A DNA stretch of 51,717 bases from Planctomycetota bacterium (GCA_003694635.1 RFKQ01000075.1:1-51717); one strand, 5' to 3'; positions 5,362-22,833 are shown, counted from the first letter of the stretch. Numbers and translations are program-made. Notes: generated by a model not told the origin, from the letters alone.

Positions 5362-6426
5362 ATGGAATCCATTCTTATCACAGGAGGCGCTGGATTTGTT
5401 GGCTCCTATCTAGCCTTGAAATGGAAAGAAAAACAAAGCGCCTGCAAAATTAAAGTTCTGGACAATCTACGACGCCGAGGTTCTGAGCTCAACCTACCTC
5501 GTCTAAAGAAAGCGGGGATTGAATTTTTCCACGGCGATATCCGCCTACCAGAGGATTTGGAACAGGTAGGCGAGGTCCAGCTTCTCGTGGAATGCTCCGC
5601 CGATCCCTCCGTCCAGGCGGGGGTAAACCATTCGCCCGCTTATGTGATTGGCACCAACCTAACAGGGACTGTGAATTGCTTAGAATACGCCAGAAAGCAA
5701 GGCGCGAATTTCCTTTTTCTCTCCACCAGCCGGGTGTATCCCATCCCCTTGCTTCGCCAAATTCAGCTAAGGGAAACCCCAACCCGTTTTGAGCTTATGA
5801 ACGATCAAAATCTTCCGGGCGTGAGTGAGGAGGGCATTTCTGAAGATTTTCCTCTAGAGGGCCATCGCAGCTTCTATGGCGCAACCAAACTCGCCTCTGA
5901 GCATATTATCCAAGAATATGTGGCAAATTATGACCTAAAGGCTGTGATCAACCGCTGCAGCGTTCTCGCCGGGAGCTGGCAGATGGGCAAAGTGGATCAA
6001 GGTGTGGTTAGCCTGTGGATGATACGCCATTTTTTTCGCCAATCGCTGCGCTACATTGGCTTTGGAGGAACAGGCAAACAAGTGCGCGATGTTTTGCACC
6101 TCCAAGATCTTTTCCAGCTCCTCTGGCATCAGCACAAGGAAATACAACAGCACGCTGGCAAGGTGTACAACGTAGGAGGAGGACGAGAAAATAGCGTTTC
6201 TTTGCGCGAGCTTACCTCTCTTTGCGAAAAGTACACTGGCAACTCCGTAGAAATTCTCCCTCAACCCCAGACCAATCCACAGGATATACCGCTCTACATC
6301 AGCGATTGCCGCCGAGTAAGAAATGTTTTCAACTGGCACCCCACGGTCTCGATAGAGGAAATTCTCGAAGAAATCGCTAGGTGGTTGCGTGACTATAGGA
6401 GTCAGCTTGAGTATGTTTTCACCTGA
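5362..6426 (+). CDS. Extended-SDR NAD-dependent sugar-nucleotide epimerase/dehydratase (CDP-paratose 2-epimerase-like)
   Basis: It has the GGAGFVGSYL Rossmann motif, STSRVY and the catalytic YGATK (YxxxK). Confidence 0.8.
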   Translation: MESILITGGAGFVGSYLALKWKEKQSACKIKVLDNLRRRGSELNLPRLKKAGIEFFHGDIRLPEDLEQVGEVQLLVECSADPSVQAGVNHSPAYVIGTNLTGTVNCLEYARKQGANFLFLSTSRVYPIPLLRQIQLRETPTRFELMNDQNLPGVSEEGISEDFPLEGHRSFYGATKLASEHIIQEYVANYDLKAVINRCSVLAGSWQMGKVDQGVVSLWMIRHFFRQSLRYIGFGGTGKQVRDVLHLQDLFQLLWHQHKEIQQHAGKVYNVGGGRENSVSLRELTSLCEKYTGNSVEILPQPQTNPQDIPLYISDCRRVRNVFNWHPTVSIEEILEEIARWLRDYRSQLEYVFT

Positions 6427-6462
6427 GTTTTGGCTAAGAATCGTGAGGTGAGGTGATCAACG

Positions 6463-6690
6463 AAAGTTTTTGGGAGGGAGTGGTAGGGGGAAACCTTAGA
6501 GGGTTCCTCCTACCACAGAGAAGTTTTTGGAGGTACGGAACCTTTTTTCTAAAAAGGTTCCGAGAAGAAAAGTTTTTGGGAGGGGGTCGGTAGGGGGAAC
6601 ACTTTTTCCAAAAAGGGTTCCCCCTATGGCTCGAAAGTTTTTGGAGGTACGGAACCTTTTTTCTAAAAAGGTTCCGAGAAGAAAAGTTTT
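6463..6690 (+). repeat. Four tandem REP-like units of about 57 nt in two alternating subtypes; includes a 56-bp perfect direct repeat (6521-6576 = 6635-6690)
   Basis: Each unit has the leader (G)AAAGTTTTTGG(G)AGG followed by a hairpin. Examples are CGGAACCTTTTT-tct-AAAAAGGTTCCG (12 bp perfect, 6536-6562) and TAGGGGGAACaCTTTTT-cc-AAAAAGgGTTCCCCCTA. ORF 6527..6748 is a translation artefact of the array. Confidence 0.9.
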
Positions 6691-6708
6691 GAAAAAGAAG
6701 AGGAAAAT

Positions 6709-7773
6709 ATGGCTAAAATTGCGGTTATCACTGGTTCTGCTGGTTTGATTGGATCGGAGTCGGTTTATTTTTTAGGGGACAAGATGGATTTGGTTGTGGG
6801 GATTGACAATGATATGAGAAGATATTTTTTTGGCGATAGTGCTTCCACTTTATGGTGTCGTCGGGAGTTGGAGGAGCAGGTGGCAAATTATCGCCATTAT
6901 TCTGTAGACATACGAGATAAGGACTCGATTGAGCGGATATTTCGGGAGTATGGGGAAGATATCGATCTTATCATACACACCGCTGCGCAGCCTTCCCATG
7001 ATTGGGCGGCTAGGGAGCCGTTTACAGATTTTCATATCAACGCCACAGGGACATTGATTTTACTGGAGGCCACAAGGCAGTTTTGCAGCAAGGCCAAATT
7101 TATTTTTACTTCTACCAACAAGGTTTACGGGGACCGCCCCAACACTCTTCCGCTGAGAGAATTGGAGAAGCGCTACGAGTTGGAGGAAACTCATCCTTTT
7201 TATAGGGGAATTGATGAGAGCATGAGCATCGACCAATCTCTGCATAGTTTATTTGGTGCTTCCAAGGTAGCTGCGGATATTTTGGTCCAGGAGTACGCCC
7301 GTTATTTTGGAATGTTCACCGTTTGTTTTCGGGGGGGATGTCTCACCGGTGGGCGCCATAGTGGCGCCGAGCTTCACGGTTTTTTATCGTATTTGATGCG
7401 GTGCGCAATTACGAAAAGCCATTATACCATTTATGGATACAAGGGGAAGCAGGTGAGAGACAACATACACAGTTATGATTTGGTGAATGCGTTTTGGCAT
7501 TATTACCAAAACCCGCGTCCTGGTGGAGAGGTGTACAACATTGGCGGAGGGCGTCATAGCCATTGCTCGGTGTTGGAGGCGATGGATTTATGTCAAGAAA
7601 TTAGTGGAAATAAAATCAATTATACCATTTCCCCTACCAATCGTATTGGGGATCATATCTGGTGGATTAGCGATGTTAACAAATTTCGCTCCCACTATCC
7701 GGAATGGGAATACAAGTATGATCTTAAGGAAATTTTATCTGAAATTTATCGTCTATGGATGAAAAAAATTTAA
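6709..7773 (+). CDS. Extended-SDR NAD-dependent epimerase/dehydratase family protein
   Basis: It has the GSAGLIGSE Rossmann motif, TSTNKVYGD, and the position of YxxxK reads FGASK (see findings). Confidence 0.8.
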
Positions 7774-9785: not shown

Positions 9786-11510
9786 ATGGAACATCCCCGC
9801 ACAAAACCAGCTCTATTTGGGCAAATCGCCCTAGAATTGGGATTTCTCTCCCAAGAGGAACTAGAGGAAGTACTGAAATATCAACAAAAACTCCAAAGCC
9901 TAGGGTACAGCGAATTCTTCGGCGATATCTGCCTGAAACTAGGCTATTTGACAAAATCCCAAGTGGATCAGATCATCCAATACCAACGCAATACCACTCC
10001 CACCCCTTCCCTAACCTACGGCCAAATTGGACTGCAAAACGGCTTTTTTACCCCCCAACAACTCCAAGAATGCATCGAACTCCAAAAAAAATCACCCACC
10101 TACGCCCCCATTGGACACTACCTACTGAAAAAAAACTACATCACTCCAGAAAACCATCAAGCCATCCTTAAAGCGCTTTCAAGAGCCTCCTCCCCATCCC
10201 TCCCTCCTAAAACCGTACAGCTCACAAAAACCTCCCCCTCAGAACTCAATCAGCTCTACGGACGTGTTGCCCTAGAATACGGCATGGTAACCCCCCAACA
10301 ACTGGACGAATTTTTCTATAAAAAAGCTCCCGATGCCCAAAAATTTAAAAAATTGGAAGACTATCTTCTCGCCAAAAATTATATTACCACTGGAGACCAC
10401 CATTTCATCATCAAAACAATCGAAAAAAGAAAAATCTCCGAAAAATATACCCAACGACAAAATGAACTAAAAAATATCCACTATGGCAAAGGCTGGGGCA
10501 AACAACTAACCGTCCAATGGATCCAAGAACAGCTCTCCCTAGGAGAAACAAAAACCTCTAAATCCAAAACCAATCTCACCGAAGCGGAAATCCACTCCAG
10601 ACTACTCTTCCTAAAAATCAAACAAATGTTCTCCCCCAACGTCTTCCGTATCGTCGCCCCCCTCTCCCAAGGTGGAACAGCGGTGGTCTACCGAGCCATC
10701 TACCGCCAAACCGGCCAAGAAGTAGCCATCAAAATCCTACCCTCCTACGAAGTCTCAAAAGACGTCCTACCAAGGGATATGCTCCAAGACCAAGCCAGAG
10801 AAAAAAGATTTCAACGGGAAAAACTTATCCTCCAAAAAATCCATCACCCCAATATTGTCCAAATTTTAGATGCTGGCGAAGTCCAAGACTTTTCGTATTA
10901 TGTGATGGAACTTCTGGAAGGACTCACGCTAGACAGAATTATCTGGAAAGCCAAATACCTAGAAGAACGCTACGCCCTGGAAATCACCCTCTCCATCGCC
11001 CTAGCCCTTGAACATATTTGGAAACTGTCCGTCTTCCATAGAGATGTCAAACCGGACAATATCCTCATCCTACCAAATGGAAACATCAAACTACTGGACT
11101 TTGGATTGGCCAAACACCACCCACCAACATCTAAAAAACAAATTACGCCAGAAAATCTTATTCTAGGGACCCCTTCCTACATGGCCCCAGAACAATCTGG
11201 ACTGCTAAAAAATTTTGACCCAGATATCCGATCCGATATCTACTCCCTAGGTATCACCCTCTTCTATATGCTCGCCGGACACCCCCCCTACTCCCACCCC
11301 TCTCCCCTCTCTCTCATGATGATGCACCTAGAAGAAGAAATCCCCTCTATTCGACAAAAACGTCCCGAAATCTCACATCAAACCGAATCCATCCTCCAAA
11401 AAATGCTAGCCAAACACCCAGACTACCGCTACCAAACCCCATCTGAGCTGATCAACGACCTAAAAAAAGCCCTAGCTTTCTTTCTAAAAGAAAGAACCCA
11501 ATCTCCCTAG
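9786..11510 (+). CDS. Hanks-type Ser/Thr protein kinase with six N-terminal MshEN/T2SSE_N-like 24-aa repeats
   Basis: Kinase motifs present are GGTAVVYRA...VAIK, HRDVKPDNIL, DFGLA and GTPSYMAPE. An example N-terminal repeat is LFGQIALELGFLSQEELEEVLKYQ. Confidence 0.9.
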   Translation: MEHPRTKPALFGQIALELGFLSQEELEEVLKYQQKLQSLGYSEFFGDICLKLGYLTKSQVDQIIQYQRNTTPTPSLTYGQIGLQNGFFTPQQLQECIELQKKSPTYAPIGHYLLKKNYITPENHQAILKALSRASSPSLPPKTVQLTKTSPSELNQLYGRVALEYGMVTPQQLDEFFYKKAPDAQKFKKLEDYLLAKNYITTGDHHFIIKTIEKRKISEKYTQRQNELKNIHYGKGWGKQLTVQWIQEQLSLGETKTSKSKTNLTEAEIHSRLLFLKIKQMFSPNVFRIVAPLSQGGTAVVYRAIYRQTGQEVAIKILPSYEVSKDVLPRDMLQDQAREKRFQREKLILQKIHHPNIVQILDAGEVQDFSYYVMELLEGLTLDRIIWKAKYLEERYALEITLSIALALEHIWKLSVFHRDVKPDNILILPNGNIKLLDFGLAKHHPPTSKKQITPENLILGTPSYMAPEQSGLLKNFDPDIRSDIYSLGITLFYMLAGHPPYSHPSPLSLMMMHLEEEIPSIRQKRPEISHQTESILQKMLAKHPDYRYQTPSELINDLKKALAFFLKERTQSP

Positions 11511-12613: not shown

Positions 12614-12793
12614 AACCTACTCGTAAATCACCGGGGTTAAATACTCCCTCGCATGGGGACGAAAATGGGTCTCCATTAAATTCTTATAGTAAACCTATTT
12701 TAGACGCCTTCGAACAACCTACTCGTAAATCACCGGGGTTAAATACTCCCTCGCATGGGGACGAAAATGGGTCTCCATTAAATTCTTATAGTA
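12614..12793. repeat. 78-bp perfect direct repeat (12614-12691 = 12716-12793) separated by 24 bp; the second copy is the 3' end plus stop codon of the CDS at 12719..14146
   Basis: The string aacctactcgtaaatcaccggggttaaatactccctcgcatggggacgaaaatgggtctccattaaattcttatagta is read twice in the sequence. Confidence 0.95.
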
Positions 12794-14146
12794 TTTGTAA
12801 AAATACTCGTGCTCGTGGGGAGGGAAATCACTCCACTCAATGGCATATCGAATGATCTCATCAAAATAGCCCCTGTCGTAAAACTCAATAAGCTTGTCCT
12901 CCAAATCGCTGAAATTTTCCTCCACAAATTTGTTAAAATCCTCCTCCCCATAGTATTCCTCGGAAAGCTTTCGATGGTACTCATACTTCTCCAACTGACT
13001 CCTGTTGGGATCATTGAGGACCTTTAAATACCTCTCCTGCTCCATGTCCATCCTCAAATCCTTCTCCGTGACAGCACAGTAAATAATCCACTTCAACAAA
13101 GCGCCAATCACCCAAAGAAAATGCACGTGCAAAGAAGTAAAATTCGTGTCTGGACAAGCGTTGGCAAAATCAATTGGATGAATGATATTGTCCTTGATGA
13201 TCGCCTCGTAAGAGTTGTAATTCCAACGATGGTAAGAGTTGATAAACTTCACATAACTCGCAAGCCGCTCAAACATGTCCTTGTTGACCTTTAACTTCTC
13301 CTCCGAATAATGTTGATGGTGCGGCTTGTCCGGCTGATAACGCATGGGAATGATCTGAGGACCTAATGCCATACAACGAATAAAAACATCATAATCCTCA
13401 ATCGCCTCTTGCAAATGAAACGCCTTACCCCCCGTTTCGTCATATTTGGCGTACAACTCCTCCAATGAGCGCACCTTATACACTTCGCTGCCACCACCGC
13501 CTTGAGCCTTCTTAAGATAAAGGGGGAATTTATTGTCAAAATATTTCTCCACCGCCTCCTTGAGGTAATTTCCTTGATAATAAAAATCTTGGCGCATCTT
13601 TTTGTTGAGCTTTTGAAAATGAAGCGCCCGCTGATAATCGTGCTCCACCTTCTGCCAATCCGTCTGGCGCCGCCGCTCATCCCAGCCATATTTGGTGTAC
13701 TTAATGATCAACTGCTGGCGGTACTTCCACAAATCTTCCTTTTCCAACTCCTCCGTGTAAGGGCTGTATTGGGGCAACAACACCGTGATGGGAAACCTGT
13801 CCTTGGGATGCATCGCCCGAGCCATCAAATCGTACGTGCTATGCTTGTCATGGTTGGCAAAAGAATTGGGGTAATTTAAAATCTGCATCTGAGACTGCAC
13901 CGCCGCCTGGGCCCAATAGCGGTAGAAATCATTCCAGTGTACCGTGCGATCCACCACCAAATCCGCCTTATCCCGCAAACTCACCCCACACTGAATGGGC
14001 TCAGCAATCACCCGATCCAACTCCACTTTGTATTTTTTGCCCTTATAAGTGTAGGTCCTGTCCAAAAAACGATTGATCTCATTGCAAGCCCGACGCATGC
14101 TCCAGTCGTAAGAGGCCATAATGCAAATTCTCTTTTTGATCGCCAT
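12719..14146 (-). CDS. ATP-grasp-like ligase family protein (uncharacterised)
   Basis: The layout resembles ATP-grasp enzymes: an N-terminal pre-ATP-grasp region ([22 protein letters not shown]), a glycine-rich loop [35 protein letters not shown], and [12 protein letters not shown]. No precise family was recognised. Confidence 0.5.
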
Positions 14147-19160: not shown

Positions 19161-20495
19161 ATGAAACCATCCAACCCTCTCCATAACTCCTATCTAGGCC
19201 CCAAAACCCTCATTGGAACCATCCTAGGCATCGGCCTTTACCGACTGTACCACTTCCTCTTCCTACAACCCCAACACCTCACAGATCCCTACTTTCTCTA
19301 CGATCTCAAAAACTACCTCTGGGCAGCCCAAAATTTGACCCAACCAGAAACCATCTACCACCCACAACGACTCCATCCTTACAAATACCCCCCCTTCTTC
19401 CTCCTACCCCTATCCCTCCTCACCCAATTCCCACTCCCCTGGGCAGCCGCAATATTCTGGGCGACCTCCGTCCTAGCCTTCGCCCTCTCCATCGCCCTCG
19501 CACTCCAACTAGCCAAAAATCAAACCCCAACCATCTACTTCTGGCTCGCCTTCCTTCTCCTCTACGACTACTGGCGCGTCTCCCTCCGCCTAGGACAAGT
19601 GCAATCCTTCTGGTTCCTAGCAATCATGGGAGCCGTGTACCTAGAAAAACAAAAACATTACACCCTCGCCGGTATCTCCCTAGCCCTAGGCGCCCAAATC
19701 AAAATTATTCCCCTACTCTTCCTCGGATACTTCCTCTCCCGTAAATCCTGGAAAGTACTCCTAGGCTTCCTCCTAGGAATAGCTCTCTCTACCCTCACCC
19801 TCGGGATATGCTGGGGATGGCCCCTCACCCTCCAACTTCACATCTCCTTTACAAAATTAATCCTACTCCAATCCACCCAACTCAACACCCTCGAAACCCT
19901 ACACTATAAAAATCATTCCCTCCTCAAAGTACTCATCGCACCCCTGGCCAACCAACCCTACACCTACAACCAATGGCAATGGAATATCGCCTCTCTTCCC
20001 CTAAACTTTCTAAAAATATACGCCTATAGCCTCGCCCTACTCCTACTTGGCTACACCACCTGGCTAAGCCACCACCACCCCCATCTGCGCCTATTCTCTA
20101 TCGCACAATTTACCCTCCTCTGCCTACTCCTCCCCCCCATCGTCTGGCATGACTATTATTACCTCCTCATCCTACCCCTAGCCGTCGCCTTCCAAAAAAA
20201 CAAAACCCTAAACTTCAAATCCATATCCTTCTGGATATTCGCCCTACTCTTCCTCGCCATGCCCCGCCTCTTTCACCACTTCGGCGGAGAAAGATTCTAT
20301 TGGTTCCTCGGCGGCGAAACCTTAGGACTACTCGCTCTCTGGTGGAACCTAACCCAATTTTATAAAATACCATCCCCAAACTCCAACCCGGACGAAAAAA
20401 ATCCTACAAAAGCTCAGAAATCCTCTCCAACTCCGCCTTCAACTCCACCGGACTCTCAAATCGATCCTCCGGCATCTTCTGCATCAACCGCATAA
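19161..20495 (+). CDS. GT87/DUF2029-like polytopic membrane glycosyltransferase
   Basis: It is polytopic, with YKYPPFFLL in the first loop, which is typical of GT87/DUF2029 (GT-C fold). The low-complexity P/S/T tail overlaps the convergent kinase gene by 92 nt, so the true stop-proximal part may be non-functional read-through. Confidence 0.65.
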   Translation: MKPSNPLHNSYLGPKTLIGTILGIGLYRLYHFLFLQPQHLTDPYFLYDLKNYLWAAQNLTQPETIYHPQRLHPYKYPPFFLLPLSLLTQFPLPWAAAIFWATSVLAFALSIALALQLAKNQTPTIYFWLAFLLLYDYWRVSLRLGQVQSFWFLAIMGAVYLEKQKHYTLAGISLALGAQIKIIPLLFLGYFLSRKSWKVLLGFLLGIALSTLTLGICWGWPLTLQLHISFTKLILLQSTQLNTLETLHYKNHSLLKVLIAPLANQPYTYNQWQWNIASLPLNFLKIYAYSLALLLLGYTTWLSHHHPHLRLFSIAQFTLLCLLLPPIVWHDYYYLLILPLAVAFQKNKTLNFKSISFWIFALLFLAMPRLFHHFGGERFYWFLGGETLGLLALWWNLTQFYKIPSPNSNPDEKNPTKAQKSSPTPPSTPPDSQIDPPASSASTA

Positions 20496-22833
20496 TCAAC
20501 TCCGCTAACTCCGGCAATAACTCCGGCTTGCGCTCCCGCGGGTCCGGCACCGGCGAACGAACATGCTTGGCCATCACCGCCGCCGCCGTATACCCCTCAA
20601 AAGGCACTGTCCCCGTCACCATATGAAACAAAGAAGCACCTAACCCATACATGTCCGTGCGACAATCCACCTTCTGTCCCCTCGCCTGCTCCGGAGCAAT
20701 ATAATACGGAGAACCCATCGCCATTCCCGCAGCTGTCAAATTCTTATTGCTATCCAACTGCTTGGCAATCCCCAAATCACACAACTTCGCCACCTTGTCC
20801 TTGGTATACATAATATTCTCCGGCTTAATGTCCCGATGCACCACCCGCTTCTGCCAAGCGTAAATCAACGCCTCCGTAACCTGCAACACTATATCTACCG
20901 CCAACTTTTCCGATAAATACCCACCTTCCGTTTCTTCCATAATATCCTTGACAGATTTTCCCTCCACATACTCCATCGAATAATAGTAATAATCCCCCGA
21001 AATCCCTACATCGTACGCCTTCACAATGTTGGGATGCTCAAACTCAATCGACGCCTGAGCCTCCATAATAAAACGCTTTAAAAACTCCTTGTCCTCCGCC
21101 ACGTGCGGCAACAATACCTTCAACGCCAACAGTTTACTCTCCCCCTCCAAACTCGCCAAATATACCAACCCCATCGCACCCTGCCCCAAAACCCGATAAA
21201 CCCGATACCCCTCAATCGGACTCTCTAACCCCTCCTCCGCCTCCACCTCCACCCCCTCTCCACCTCCAGAAGAAACATCCTCCCCCTTCACTCCACCCTT
21301 TAACTGTGCCTGCCACTGCTCCAAATCCCTCAATAACTCCTCCGGCGTCTGATAACGATCCTCCTTCCTCTTCGCCATCATCTTCGCCAAAATCTCCGAA
21401 AACCGCCGACTTACCCCCTCCCGATACTCACAAGCCATCGGTACCGGCGCCGTGGCATGCTGCAACAAAACCTGCGTCGGCGAATTCCCATCGTAAGGCA
21501 CCCGCCCCGTCACCATGTGAAACAACGTCGTACCCAACGCATAAATATCACTCCTCGTATCCACCTCCGCACCCTTGGCCTGCTCCGGAGAAATATAATA
21601 CGGCGTCCCTACCGCCATCCCCTCCTGAGTCAGCGATAAATCCTTGTCCAAACACTTGGCAATCCCTAAATCACATAACTTAGCATTCCCCGTACTCTTG
21701 TCTATCATAATATTCTCCGGCTTAATGTCCCGATGCACCACCCGCTTCTGCCAAGCATATTCCAACGCCTTAGCAATCTGTATCGCATACTCCAACGTCT
21801 TCTCCTCCGTCAATGCCCCCTCGTCCAAAAGATCCTTCACCGCAAAACCATCCACATACTCCATCGAATAATAACAATTCTCCCCCGATACCCCCACATC
21901 AAATGCCCGCACAATATGCGGATGATCAAACTCAATCGACGCCACCGCCTCCTGCAAAAAACGACGCAAATACGCAGGATCCTCCGAATAATTCCCATGC
22001 AACACCTTCAACGCTACCAACTGATCCGTCCCCTTCTCCCGAGCCTTGTACACCGTCCCCATACCCCCCTCCCCCAATACCTTCTCGCAAATATAACCCT
22101 CCACCGGACTCTTGATCGGCATCACCCGCCTTAACTCCTGCAACGCTTCCCCTCGAATATACTTCTTCTCTATCAAAACCTCATCCAAACCCTTCTCCAA
22201 CCCCATCTCCTTCATCTTAGCACAAATGCGACGACACTCCTCCACCTTCTCCAAACTCACCAAACCCATCTCCAAAGCCTTTCGCGCAAATAACTCCCCA
22301 TAACTCAACTCCCCCTCCTCCTGGGATGCATACAAACTACTCTCCAAAGCATCCGCACTCGACTCCGCCGAAGAAGAAGATGCCCCCCTCTTCGAGGACT
22401 GTGCTCCCCCCTGCTCTCCCCTCTGCTGCTGCAAAATACGCTGCTGGGCCTGCAACAACGCCCGATGATGCTGAGGAAGAATATACCCCCTCTCCACCAA
22501 AATCTCCCCTAACCTCTTGGTATATCCACCCGACTTCTGCAACTGTAAACACTCATTCACCTGAGACTGCGTCACTAACCCATTCTTTACCGCTAAACGA
22601 CCATACAACGTATCATCCCGAATCAGCAAACTAATCCTCTGCGCCCGCAATACCTTCTCCACCTGCTGAGGTGTCAAAATCCCCGCCTGAATGAAAATAT
22701 CTCCGATCGATACACGCCTACCCTCCCGAATATACCGCTCCTGCAAACTTAAACAATGACGTACCTGCTCCTCCGTCGCCAATCGATTGGAAATCACTAT
22801 CCTTCCAAATAATATGTCCACTTCTGAACCCAT
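20404..22833 (-). CDS. Tandem (dual) Hanks-type Ser/Thr protein kinase with N-terminal MshEN/T2SSE_N-like repeats
   Basis: There are two complete kinase domains. The first has GEGGMGTVYKA..VALKVL, HRDIKPENIMI, DLGIAK and GTPYYISPEQ. The second has GQGAMGLVYLA..LALKVL, HRDIKPENIMY, DLGIAK and GSPYYIAPEQ. They are preceded by about six 24-aa repeats. Confidence 0.9.
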   Translation of the reverse strand: MGSEVDILFGRIVISNRLATEEQVRHCLSLQERYIREGRRVSIGDIFIQAGILTPQQVEKVLRAQRISLLIRDDTLYGRLAVKNGLVTQSQVNECLQLQKSGGYTKRLGEILVERGYILPQHHRALLQAQQRILQQQRGEQGGAQSSKRGASSSSAESSADALESSLYASQEEGELSYGELFARKALEMGLVSLEKVEECRRICAKMKEMGLEKGLDEVLIEKKYIRGEALQELRRVMPIKSPVEGYICEKVLGEGGMGTVYKAREKGTDQLVALKVLHGNYSEDPAYLRRFLQEAVASIEFDHPHIVRAFDVGVSGENCYYSMEYVDGFAVKDLLDEGALTEEKTLEYAIQIAKALEYAWQKRVVHRDIKPENIMIDKSTGNAKLCDLGIAKCLDKDLSLTQEGMAVGTPYYISPEQAKGAEVDTRSDIYALGTTLFHMVTGRVPYDGNSPTQVLLQHATAPVPMACEYREGVSRRFSEILAKMMAKRKEDRYQTPEELLRDLEQWQAQLKGGVKGEDVSSGGGEGVEVEAEEGLESPIEGYRVYRVLGQGAMGLVYLASLEGESKLLALKVLLPHVAEDKEFLKRFIMEAQASIEFEHPNIVKAYDVGISGDYYYYSMEYVEGKSVKDIMEETEGGYLSEKLAVDIVLQVTEALIYAWQKRVVHRDIKPENIMYTKDKVAKLCDLGIAKQLDSNKNLTAAGMAMGSPYYIAPEQARGQKVDCRTDMYGLGASLFHMVTGTVPFEGYTAAAVMAKHVRSPVPDPRERKPELLPELAELIMRLMQKMPEDRFESPVELKAELERISELL

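Follow-up and report, generated by a model that had tools for sequence, protein, structure and literature searches.

Three MshEN_N-like modules in tandem with a Hanks-type Ser/Thr kinase from a Planctomycetota bacterium: a candidate c-di-GMP-gated kinase

A DNA stretch of 51,717 nucleotides from a Planctomycetota bacterium (GCA_003694635.1, RFKQ01000075.1:1-51717; contig C141 of its assembly), referred to here in its entirety as the window, carries a gene in which helical repeats precede a Ser/Thr protein kinase domain. A first-pass annotation described these repeats as six 24-residue motifs of the MshEN type, which bind cyclic di-GMP (c-di-GMP) in paired copies, and proposed that three such pairs gate the kinase directly. 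The locus thus raises the question of whether the repeats are homologous to the c-di-GMP-binding module of MshE, and how many of them could still bind the ligand. In the analysis presented here, homology to this module is well supported. We estimate a probability of roughly 0.55 for the reading that the gene encodes a cytoplasmic Hanks-type kinase with three MshEN_N modules, the first of which (module A) is predicted from its sequence to bind c-di-GMP and to gate the kinase.

The start codon of the gene (Table 1) is in accord with the N-termini of aligned orthologues. No transmembrane segment was found in the 574-residue protein. The maximum of the Kyte-Doolittle profile in a 19-residue window is 1.21, and in the absence of a hydrophobic segment the protein is therefore predicted to be soluble. 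All six repeats described previously were located in the translation, between residues 10 and 212. Motifs 1-5 have the proposed length of 24 residues, while motif 6 was quoted with 23 and reaches 24 with the preceding Lys included. The motifs are not contiguous; spacers between them are 10, 9, 7, 25, and 8 residues long. The true repeat unit is a two-motif module of ~57 amino acids, present in three copies (modules A, B, and C). Module A is related to module B with 33% identity (BLASTP E 1e-7), and module B to module C with 41% identity (E 1e-13), because of which module C looks like a duplicate of module B.

Profile comparisons carry most of the argument for homology. The curated NCBIfam model NF053729, of 53 positions and described as 'c-di-GMP_motif, MshE-related', matches the whole protein in four stretches with 58.7 bits (E 3.5e-16), above its cut-off of 38 bits. 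An exhaustive HMMER search with residues 1-235 through 1.84 billion representative proteins disclosed 929 relatives at E <= 1e-3; a word-indexed homologue search with the same segment returned only the query itself. When a family profile constructed from an alignment of 54 of these relatives was compared with sequences of PDB entries, it matched Thermus thermophilus PilF (E 5e-19), Geobacter PilB (E 1.8e-9), and Vibrio cholerae MshE (5htl, E 4.7e-7), and the GSPII-B domain of PilF at about E 4e-5. The matches to PilF, PilB, and MshE are aligned motif to motif, in register. With the single sequence as a query, T. thermophilus PilF was again the best PDB sequence match (E 8e-5), and a weak match to the NfrB model was also observed in this protein (NF008411, E 0.027).

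The hidden Markov model (HMM) search suggested earlier, with the T2SSE_N family PF05157, gave no match at E <= 10. Its absence had been named as grounds for rejecting the homology, which it does not refute, since this model covers another subdomain. In a six-frame search of the source genome, PF05157 (PF05157.20, named MshEN, 90 positions) exceeded its cut-off at ten places, none of them in kinase open reading frames (ORFs). In PilB-type ATPases of this genome, the PF05157 match follows directly after the NF053729 match, as on contig C118, where NF053729 at 6358-6513 is continued by PF05157 at 6517-6777; PF05157 therefore models the C-terminal alpha/beta subdomain. The kinase has no match because it lacks this subdomain, and it belongs for the same reason to the class listed as 'MshEN_N only, no T2SSE_N1' by Wang et al. 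2016 (Supplementary Table 4). For this reason PF05157 was rejected as a test for the motif. As PF05157.20 picks up the alpha/beta subdomain rather than the c-di-GMP motif, it overlooks proteins with MshEN_N only.

Structure prediction is consistent with the profile results. The AlphaFold2 (AF2) model of residues 1-221, based on the 54-member alignment, reaches a predicted local distance difference test (pLDDT) score of 89.8 and is composed of three four-helix units. Helices of module A extend over residues 10-17, 23-38, 45-51, and 57-70 (pLDDT 95-98), and those of module B over 74-84, 90-102, 109-115, and 121-135. The top Foldseek matches in the PDB are c-di-GMP-bound PilF GSPII-B (8pdk, 8pfa, 9gl5, 8pe0) and MshE (5htl), over 61 columns with a root-mean-square deviation of 1.4-1.6 A and probability 1.00. 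Sequence and model together indicate that the N-terminal 215 residues are three tandem four-helix MshEN_N modules.

Table 1. Coordinates of the kinase gene and of its predicted modules, motifs, and domains in the window
Feature	Residues	Nucleotides	Strand	Remarks
MshEN_N-like x3 - Ser/Thr kinase gene		9786..11510	+	574-residue ORF; predicted soluble
Module A (motifs 1 and 2)	10-67	9813..9986	+	near-canonical MshEN_N c-di-GMP signature; 10-residue spacer
Motif 1	10-33	9813-9884	+	
Motif 2	44-67	9915-9986	+	
Module B (motifs 3 and 4)	77-131	10014..10178	+	motif 3 intact, motif 4 variant
Motif 3	77-100	10014-10085	+	
Motif 4	108-131	10107-10178	+	
Module C (motifs 5 and 6)	157-212	10254..10421	+	apparent degenerate duplicate of module B
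Motif 5	157-180	10254-10325	+	
Motif 6	189-212	10350-10421	+	
Linker	213-291	10422..10658	+	partly helical, low confidence; full-length AF2 model
Hanks-type Ser/Thr protein kinase domain	292-551	10659..11438	+	PF00069

The fusion of the repeats to a downstream Ser/Thr kinase was also borne out. Residues 292-551 match the Pfam family Pkinase (PF00069) with 170.2 bits (E 7.3e-50), and the catalytic signature is complete, comprising K316 in VAIK, E345 of helix alphaC, HRDVKPDN at 418-425 with N425, DFG at 438-440, and APE at 467-469. The catalytic residues are invariant across the five closest six-motif orthologues and paralogues. The Gly-rich loop reads SQGGTA, with Ala in place of the third Gly. 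Judged by these residues, the catalytic core of the Hanks-type kinase is intact. In the full-length AF2 model, the linker contains helices at 202-229, 239-253, and 266-281, and pLDDT falls below 50 at residues 217-232 and 254-266. This model was rejected as a guide to docking of the sensor on the kinase (pLDDT 73.8, predicted template modelling score 0.64, alignment of 5 sequences).

Prediction of ligand binding depends on contact positions of the motif. Gly3 and residue 4 contact O6 and N7 of the guanine through their backbone amides (Wang et al. 2016, PMC5013675). Other published contacts comprise the backbone amide of residue 2 with a phosphate, hydrophobic platforms formed by side chains of residues 2, 17, and 21, Gln24 with the ribose-phosphate ring, and residue 1, which caps the base. 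Scored against the relaxed motif of the same authors, motifs 1 and 5 miss position 1 only, and motifs 4 and 6 miss three positions each. Motifs 2 and 3 miss one core position in addition to position 1. The extended consensus is (R/K/L)hGxxhhxxGhhxxxxhxxxhxxQ, in two consecutive motifs with a short spacer. Motif 1 follows it throughout, as Leu is allowed at position 1 (PMC11731258), and motif 2 departs from it at positions 1 (Phe) and 6 (Cys).

The leading Arg is indeed absent, its place being taken by Leu, Phe, Thr, or Pro, but its absence is harmless, because the GSPII-B domain of PilF, with Lys167 and Leu196 at position 1, binds c-di-GMP with a dissociation constant (KD) of 6 nM. Introduction of Arg into this domain weakens the binding, and the consensus was extended to (R/K/L) (PMC11731258). 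PilF's GSPII-C domain also binds c-di-GMP (PMC12002112); in our profile alignment, position 1 of its motif II is Pro, and its motifs are separated by 7 residues. In MshE, the N subdomain by itself is enough for binding, at 350 nM.

Among the 54 family members, conservation is highest at Gly3 of motifs 1-4 and at Gln24 of motifs 1-3 (90-98%), a pattern that is, as far as sequences can indicate, the one expected under selection for ligand binding. In the five six-motif kinases, both residues are invariant in motifs 1-3. Module A holds both residues in both of its motifs (G12, Q33, G46, Q67) and is the only one to keep every ligand-contact position. Module B keeps G79, Q100, and G110, while in its motif 4 Gly10, Leu17, and Gln24 are replaced by Asn, His (H124), and Leu (L131), respectively. 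In module C, motif 5 has K180 for Gln24, and its Gly3 is not conserved among orthologues. Motif 6 lacks Gly3, Gly10, and Gln24, with E191 and I212 in place of the first and the last, and is also off consensus at position 17 (H205). These contact losses in modules B and C are common to all five six-motif kinases. As a separate observation, Cys96 (motif 3, position 20, nucleotides 10071-10073) is invariant in 11 paralogues of the same genome.

In PilF, a single Gln24-to-Glu change cuts affinity ~80-fold, and the double change in GSPII-B (Q190E/Q218E) abolishes binding. For this reason, we expect one good predicted c-di-GMP site in module A, a possibly weak one in module B, and none in module C. 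One binding site per protein is plausible, perhaps two, and three binding pairs, as originally proposed, are unlikely, since only the first pair retains Gly3 and Gln24 in both motifs.

The preferred model can be outlined as follows. Module A would bind one monomeric c-di-GMP in the manner of MshE and PilF, with backbone amides of Gly12 and Gly46 bonding the Hoogsteen edges of the guanines, and with Gln33 and Gln67 bonding the ribose-phosphate ring. The stacking platforms would be built from the hydrophobic side chains of motif positions 2, 17, and 21, and the bases, capped by Arg in MshE, would here be capped by Leu10 and Phe44. A weaker second site may be present in module B, while module C would be a non-binding repeat with a structural or transmission role. 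Binding of the ligand would shift packing of the modules and of the helical linker, which in turn would alter autophosphorylation or dimerisation of the kinase. In this way the level of c-di-GMP would be coupled to protein phosphorylation; whether by activation or by inhibition is not readable from sequence.

Several features weigh against this model, and most of them fit its principal rival, according to which the modules are MshEN_N homologues past nucleotide binding that serve in helical interaction, dimerisation, or localisation, like the N-domains of GspE/XpsE and PilF GSPII-A. PilF GSPII-A and XpsE are family members without c-di-GMP binding. GSPII-A is near-consensus and does not bind, and restoring its consensus gave no rescue (PMC12002112); motif conservation is therefore not sufficient for binding. 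Modules B and C have lost contact residues, and no module on its own reaches the NF053729 cut-off (35.2 bits for module A with residues 1-71, 28 for B, and 20.1 for C). Position 2 is occupied by Phe or Tyr and not by Leu, motif 2 starts with Phe, and the spacer of module A has 10 residues (5 in MshE); validated binders with any of these features were not found. Foldseek E-values of 0.45-1 are not significant, because the matched stretch is short, and orthologues lie among different genes, so that their context provides no hint of a pathway. Against the loss of binding stands the 90-98% conservation of Gly3 and Gln24 in motifs 1-3 over 54 diverged members, which a bundle with a purely structural role does not easily account for. 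Furthermore, module A agrees with the extended consensus at contact positions except for Phe instead of Leu at position 2. We regard the ligand-free interpretation as unlikely on balance, while it is the alternative that best survives the available evidence.

According to another alternative, the modules recognise a different ligand, 3',3'-cyclic GMP-AMP (cGAMP) or another cyclic or linear dinucleotide, and His at position 17 in motifs 4 and 6 marks altered specificity. H124 (nucleotides 10155-10157) and H205 (10398-10400) occupy the place of a guanine-stacking Leu and do not vary among the five six-motif kinases, and His is found at this position of motif 4 in 35% of sequences family-wide. 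In Wang et al. 2016 (PMC5013675), MshEN is reported to bind cGAMP as well, more weakly. However, guanine readout in MshE is by backbone amides of Gly3 and position 4, and Gly3 is kept in motifs 1-4; in addition, no precedent for an MshEN_N preferring another ligand was found in the searchable literature. A change of ligand is thus improbable. Finally, chance likeness of amphipathic helix-loop-helix repeats to MshEN, to which spurious partial Pfam matches (FumaraseC_C, DUF4388) and weaker-scoring hits of the family profile to designed PPR and TALE helical repeats could point, is already effectively refuted by the NF053729 score, by the in-register profile matches to PilF, PilB, and MshE, and by the top structural matches being specifically c-di-GMP-bound modules.

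Comparison with known systems places the predicted c-di-GMP-responsive kinase among tandem MshEN_N proteins. With MshE of V. cholerae (MshEN_N, 5HTL; PMC5013675) it shares two 24-residue helix-loop-helix motifs in a four-helix bundle, Gly3, Gln24, and the hydrophobic character of positions 2, 17, and 21. It differs in having three tandem modules, spacers of 7-10 residues instead of 5, Leu, Phe, Thr, or Pro for the leading Arg, Phe or Tyr at position 2, and a Hanks-type kinase as the output, without the C-terminal alpha/beta subdomain and the T2SSE ATPase. PilF of T. thermophilus (GSPII A-C; 6F8L, 8PDK, 9G1W; PMC11731258, PMC12002112) likewise combines three MshEN-like units in a row that differ in quality, only some of which bind the ligand, and its binding-competent units have Lys, Leu, or Pro at position 1. 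Each PilF unit is a complete GSPII domain, C subdomain included, on a pilus ATPase, whereas here bare four-helix modules are attached to a kinase. The ligand-competent units are known in PilF and are predicted from sequence here.

Wang et al. 2016 (PMC5013675) already named the Ser/Thr kinase among partner domains of MshEN. In their Supplementary Table 4, MshEN_N-only architectures include (MshEN_N)2 (Cyanothece cce_1044), (MshEN_N)2-CheX, and (MshEN_N)2-REC-ACyc, similar to the protein described here in that tandem MshEN_N without T2SSE_N1 is combined with signalling outputs. The same table lists Pkinase-MshEN-UNK-REC (Stigmatella PKN11), in which a full MshEN is C-terminal to the kinase; three MshEN_N-only modules N-terminal to a kinase, as in the present case, are an order not included in that table. 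Escherichia coli NfrB provides a functional precedent for MshEN gating a fused non-ATPase enzyme. It is a GT2-MshEN protein, a c-di-GMP-activated glycosyltransferase (PMC8669469), which differs in the output enzyme, in the C-terminal position of the sensor, and in its single full MshEN domain. Cyanobacterial CdgR was rejected as a stand-alone relative, because neither its ComFB-like fold nor its binding mode is related.

The source genome is an assembly of 2.52 Mb in 158 contigs, ~67% complete, and its 40 nearest relatives in the genome collection are all related at the level of 'same phylum' only. A profile search of this genome gave 77 Pkinase and 54 NF053729 matches. Among domains linked to c-di-GMP, 8 GGDEF and 3 PilZ were detected, and no EAL domain was found in this ~67% complete assembly; the GGDEF proteins show that genes for diguanylate cyclases are present, which speaks for the preferred model. 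Using HMMs built on the family, we counted 74 kinase ORFs and 45 ORFs with MshEN_N-like modules, 27 of which carry both; in nearly all of these 27 fusions the module immediately precedes the kinase on its N-terminal side. In 40 genomes of the phylum, the number of NF053729 matches per genome lies between 3 and 52, and the source genome, counted with 46 matches in 2.5 Mb, is the densest per Mb of the 41 genomes compared.

Another of the 27 MshEN_N-kinase fusions is present in the window, ~10 kb away (20404..22833, minus strand, 809 residues). It comprises a four-motif module at residues 6-133, a further module at 181-234, and two Pkinase domains, both complete, at 247-505 and 543-802. Elsewhere in the genome, MshEN_N-like modules alternate with zinc-ribbon-like CxxC...CxxC segments (contig C81, 16750-17796, minus strand; contig C116, 18664-20766, plus strand), and in the C116 protein modules flank the kinase domain on both sides.

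Fusions of this kind are also common in databases. In the 149 best representatives, a kinase accompanies the module in 25, with the module N-terminal in 24, and 32 are stand-alone proteins shorter than 200 residues; further fusions are with FHA, zinc ribbons, and amidase. The three-module form is rare, with five representatives at E <= 1e-30 among the 1.84 billion proteins. Three of them are paralogues in the source genome (C141, C137, and C107), one occurs in two metagenome-assembled genomes from NCBI, and one in a Logan assembly. Species-representative genomes yielded one weak related locus, in Nitrospiraceae, with 27% identity over 95 residues, which is not informative.

Neighbours of the gene in the window encode sugar epimerases, a GT2-LPG_synthase_TM protein, metallophosphoesterases, and a PMT-type glycosyltransferase, while the P0003 orthologue adjoins the gene for release factor 1. 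Function based on an operon, including the downstream Metallophos protein as a partner phosphatase, was rejected because the neighbourhood is not conserved. Between two metallophosphoesterase genes lies a 475-residue ORF (12719-14146, minus strand) with no Pfam family at E <= 0.001. A very strong strand bias was observed from about 10000 to 44000 of the window, where the GC skew of 2-kb segments lies between -0.2 and -0.54, whatever the gene orientation.

The idea of an MshEN-kinase fusion is not new; it goes back to Wang et al. 2016, and databases contain many comparable fusions. What the locus adds is a further candidate with the rare three-module layout, in a lineage with an unusually large expansion of such fusions. 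In the searchable literature we found no study in which c-di-GMP controls a Hanks-type Ser/Thr kinase directly, and no experimental test of MshEN-kinase fusions. If module A binds c-di-GMP and alters the kinase, two large signalling systems of bacteria would be linked biochemically for the first time. The 27 fusions in the genome would then represent a rich set of test cases, and a small soluble protein would be convenient for in vitro work. A broader reading is tentative and rather doubtful: in this deep-branching lineage MshEN_N (45 ORFs, against 3 with PilZ) might be the dominant c-di-GMP receptor, with about one third of Hanks kinases gated directly and, in the six-motif subfamily, module A acting as the sensor and the His-bearing modules B and C as an element for transmission or for a second ligand. 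If true, it would amount to a network from second messenger to phosphoproteome without a characterised counterpart.

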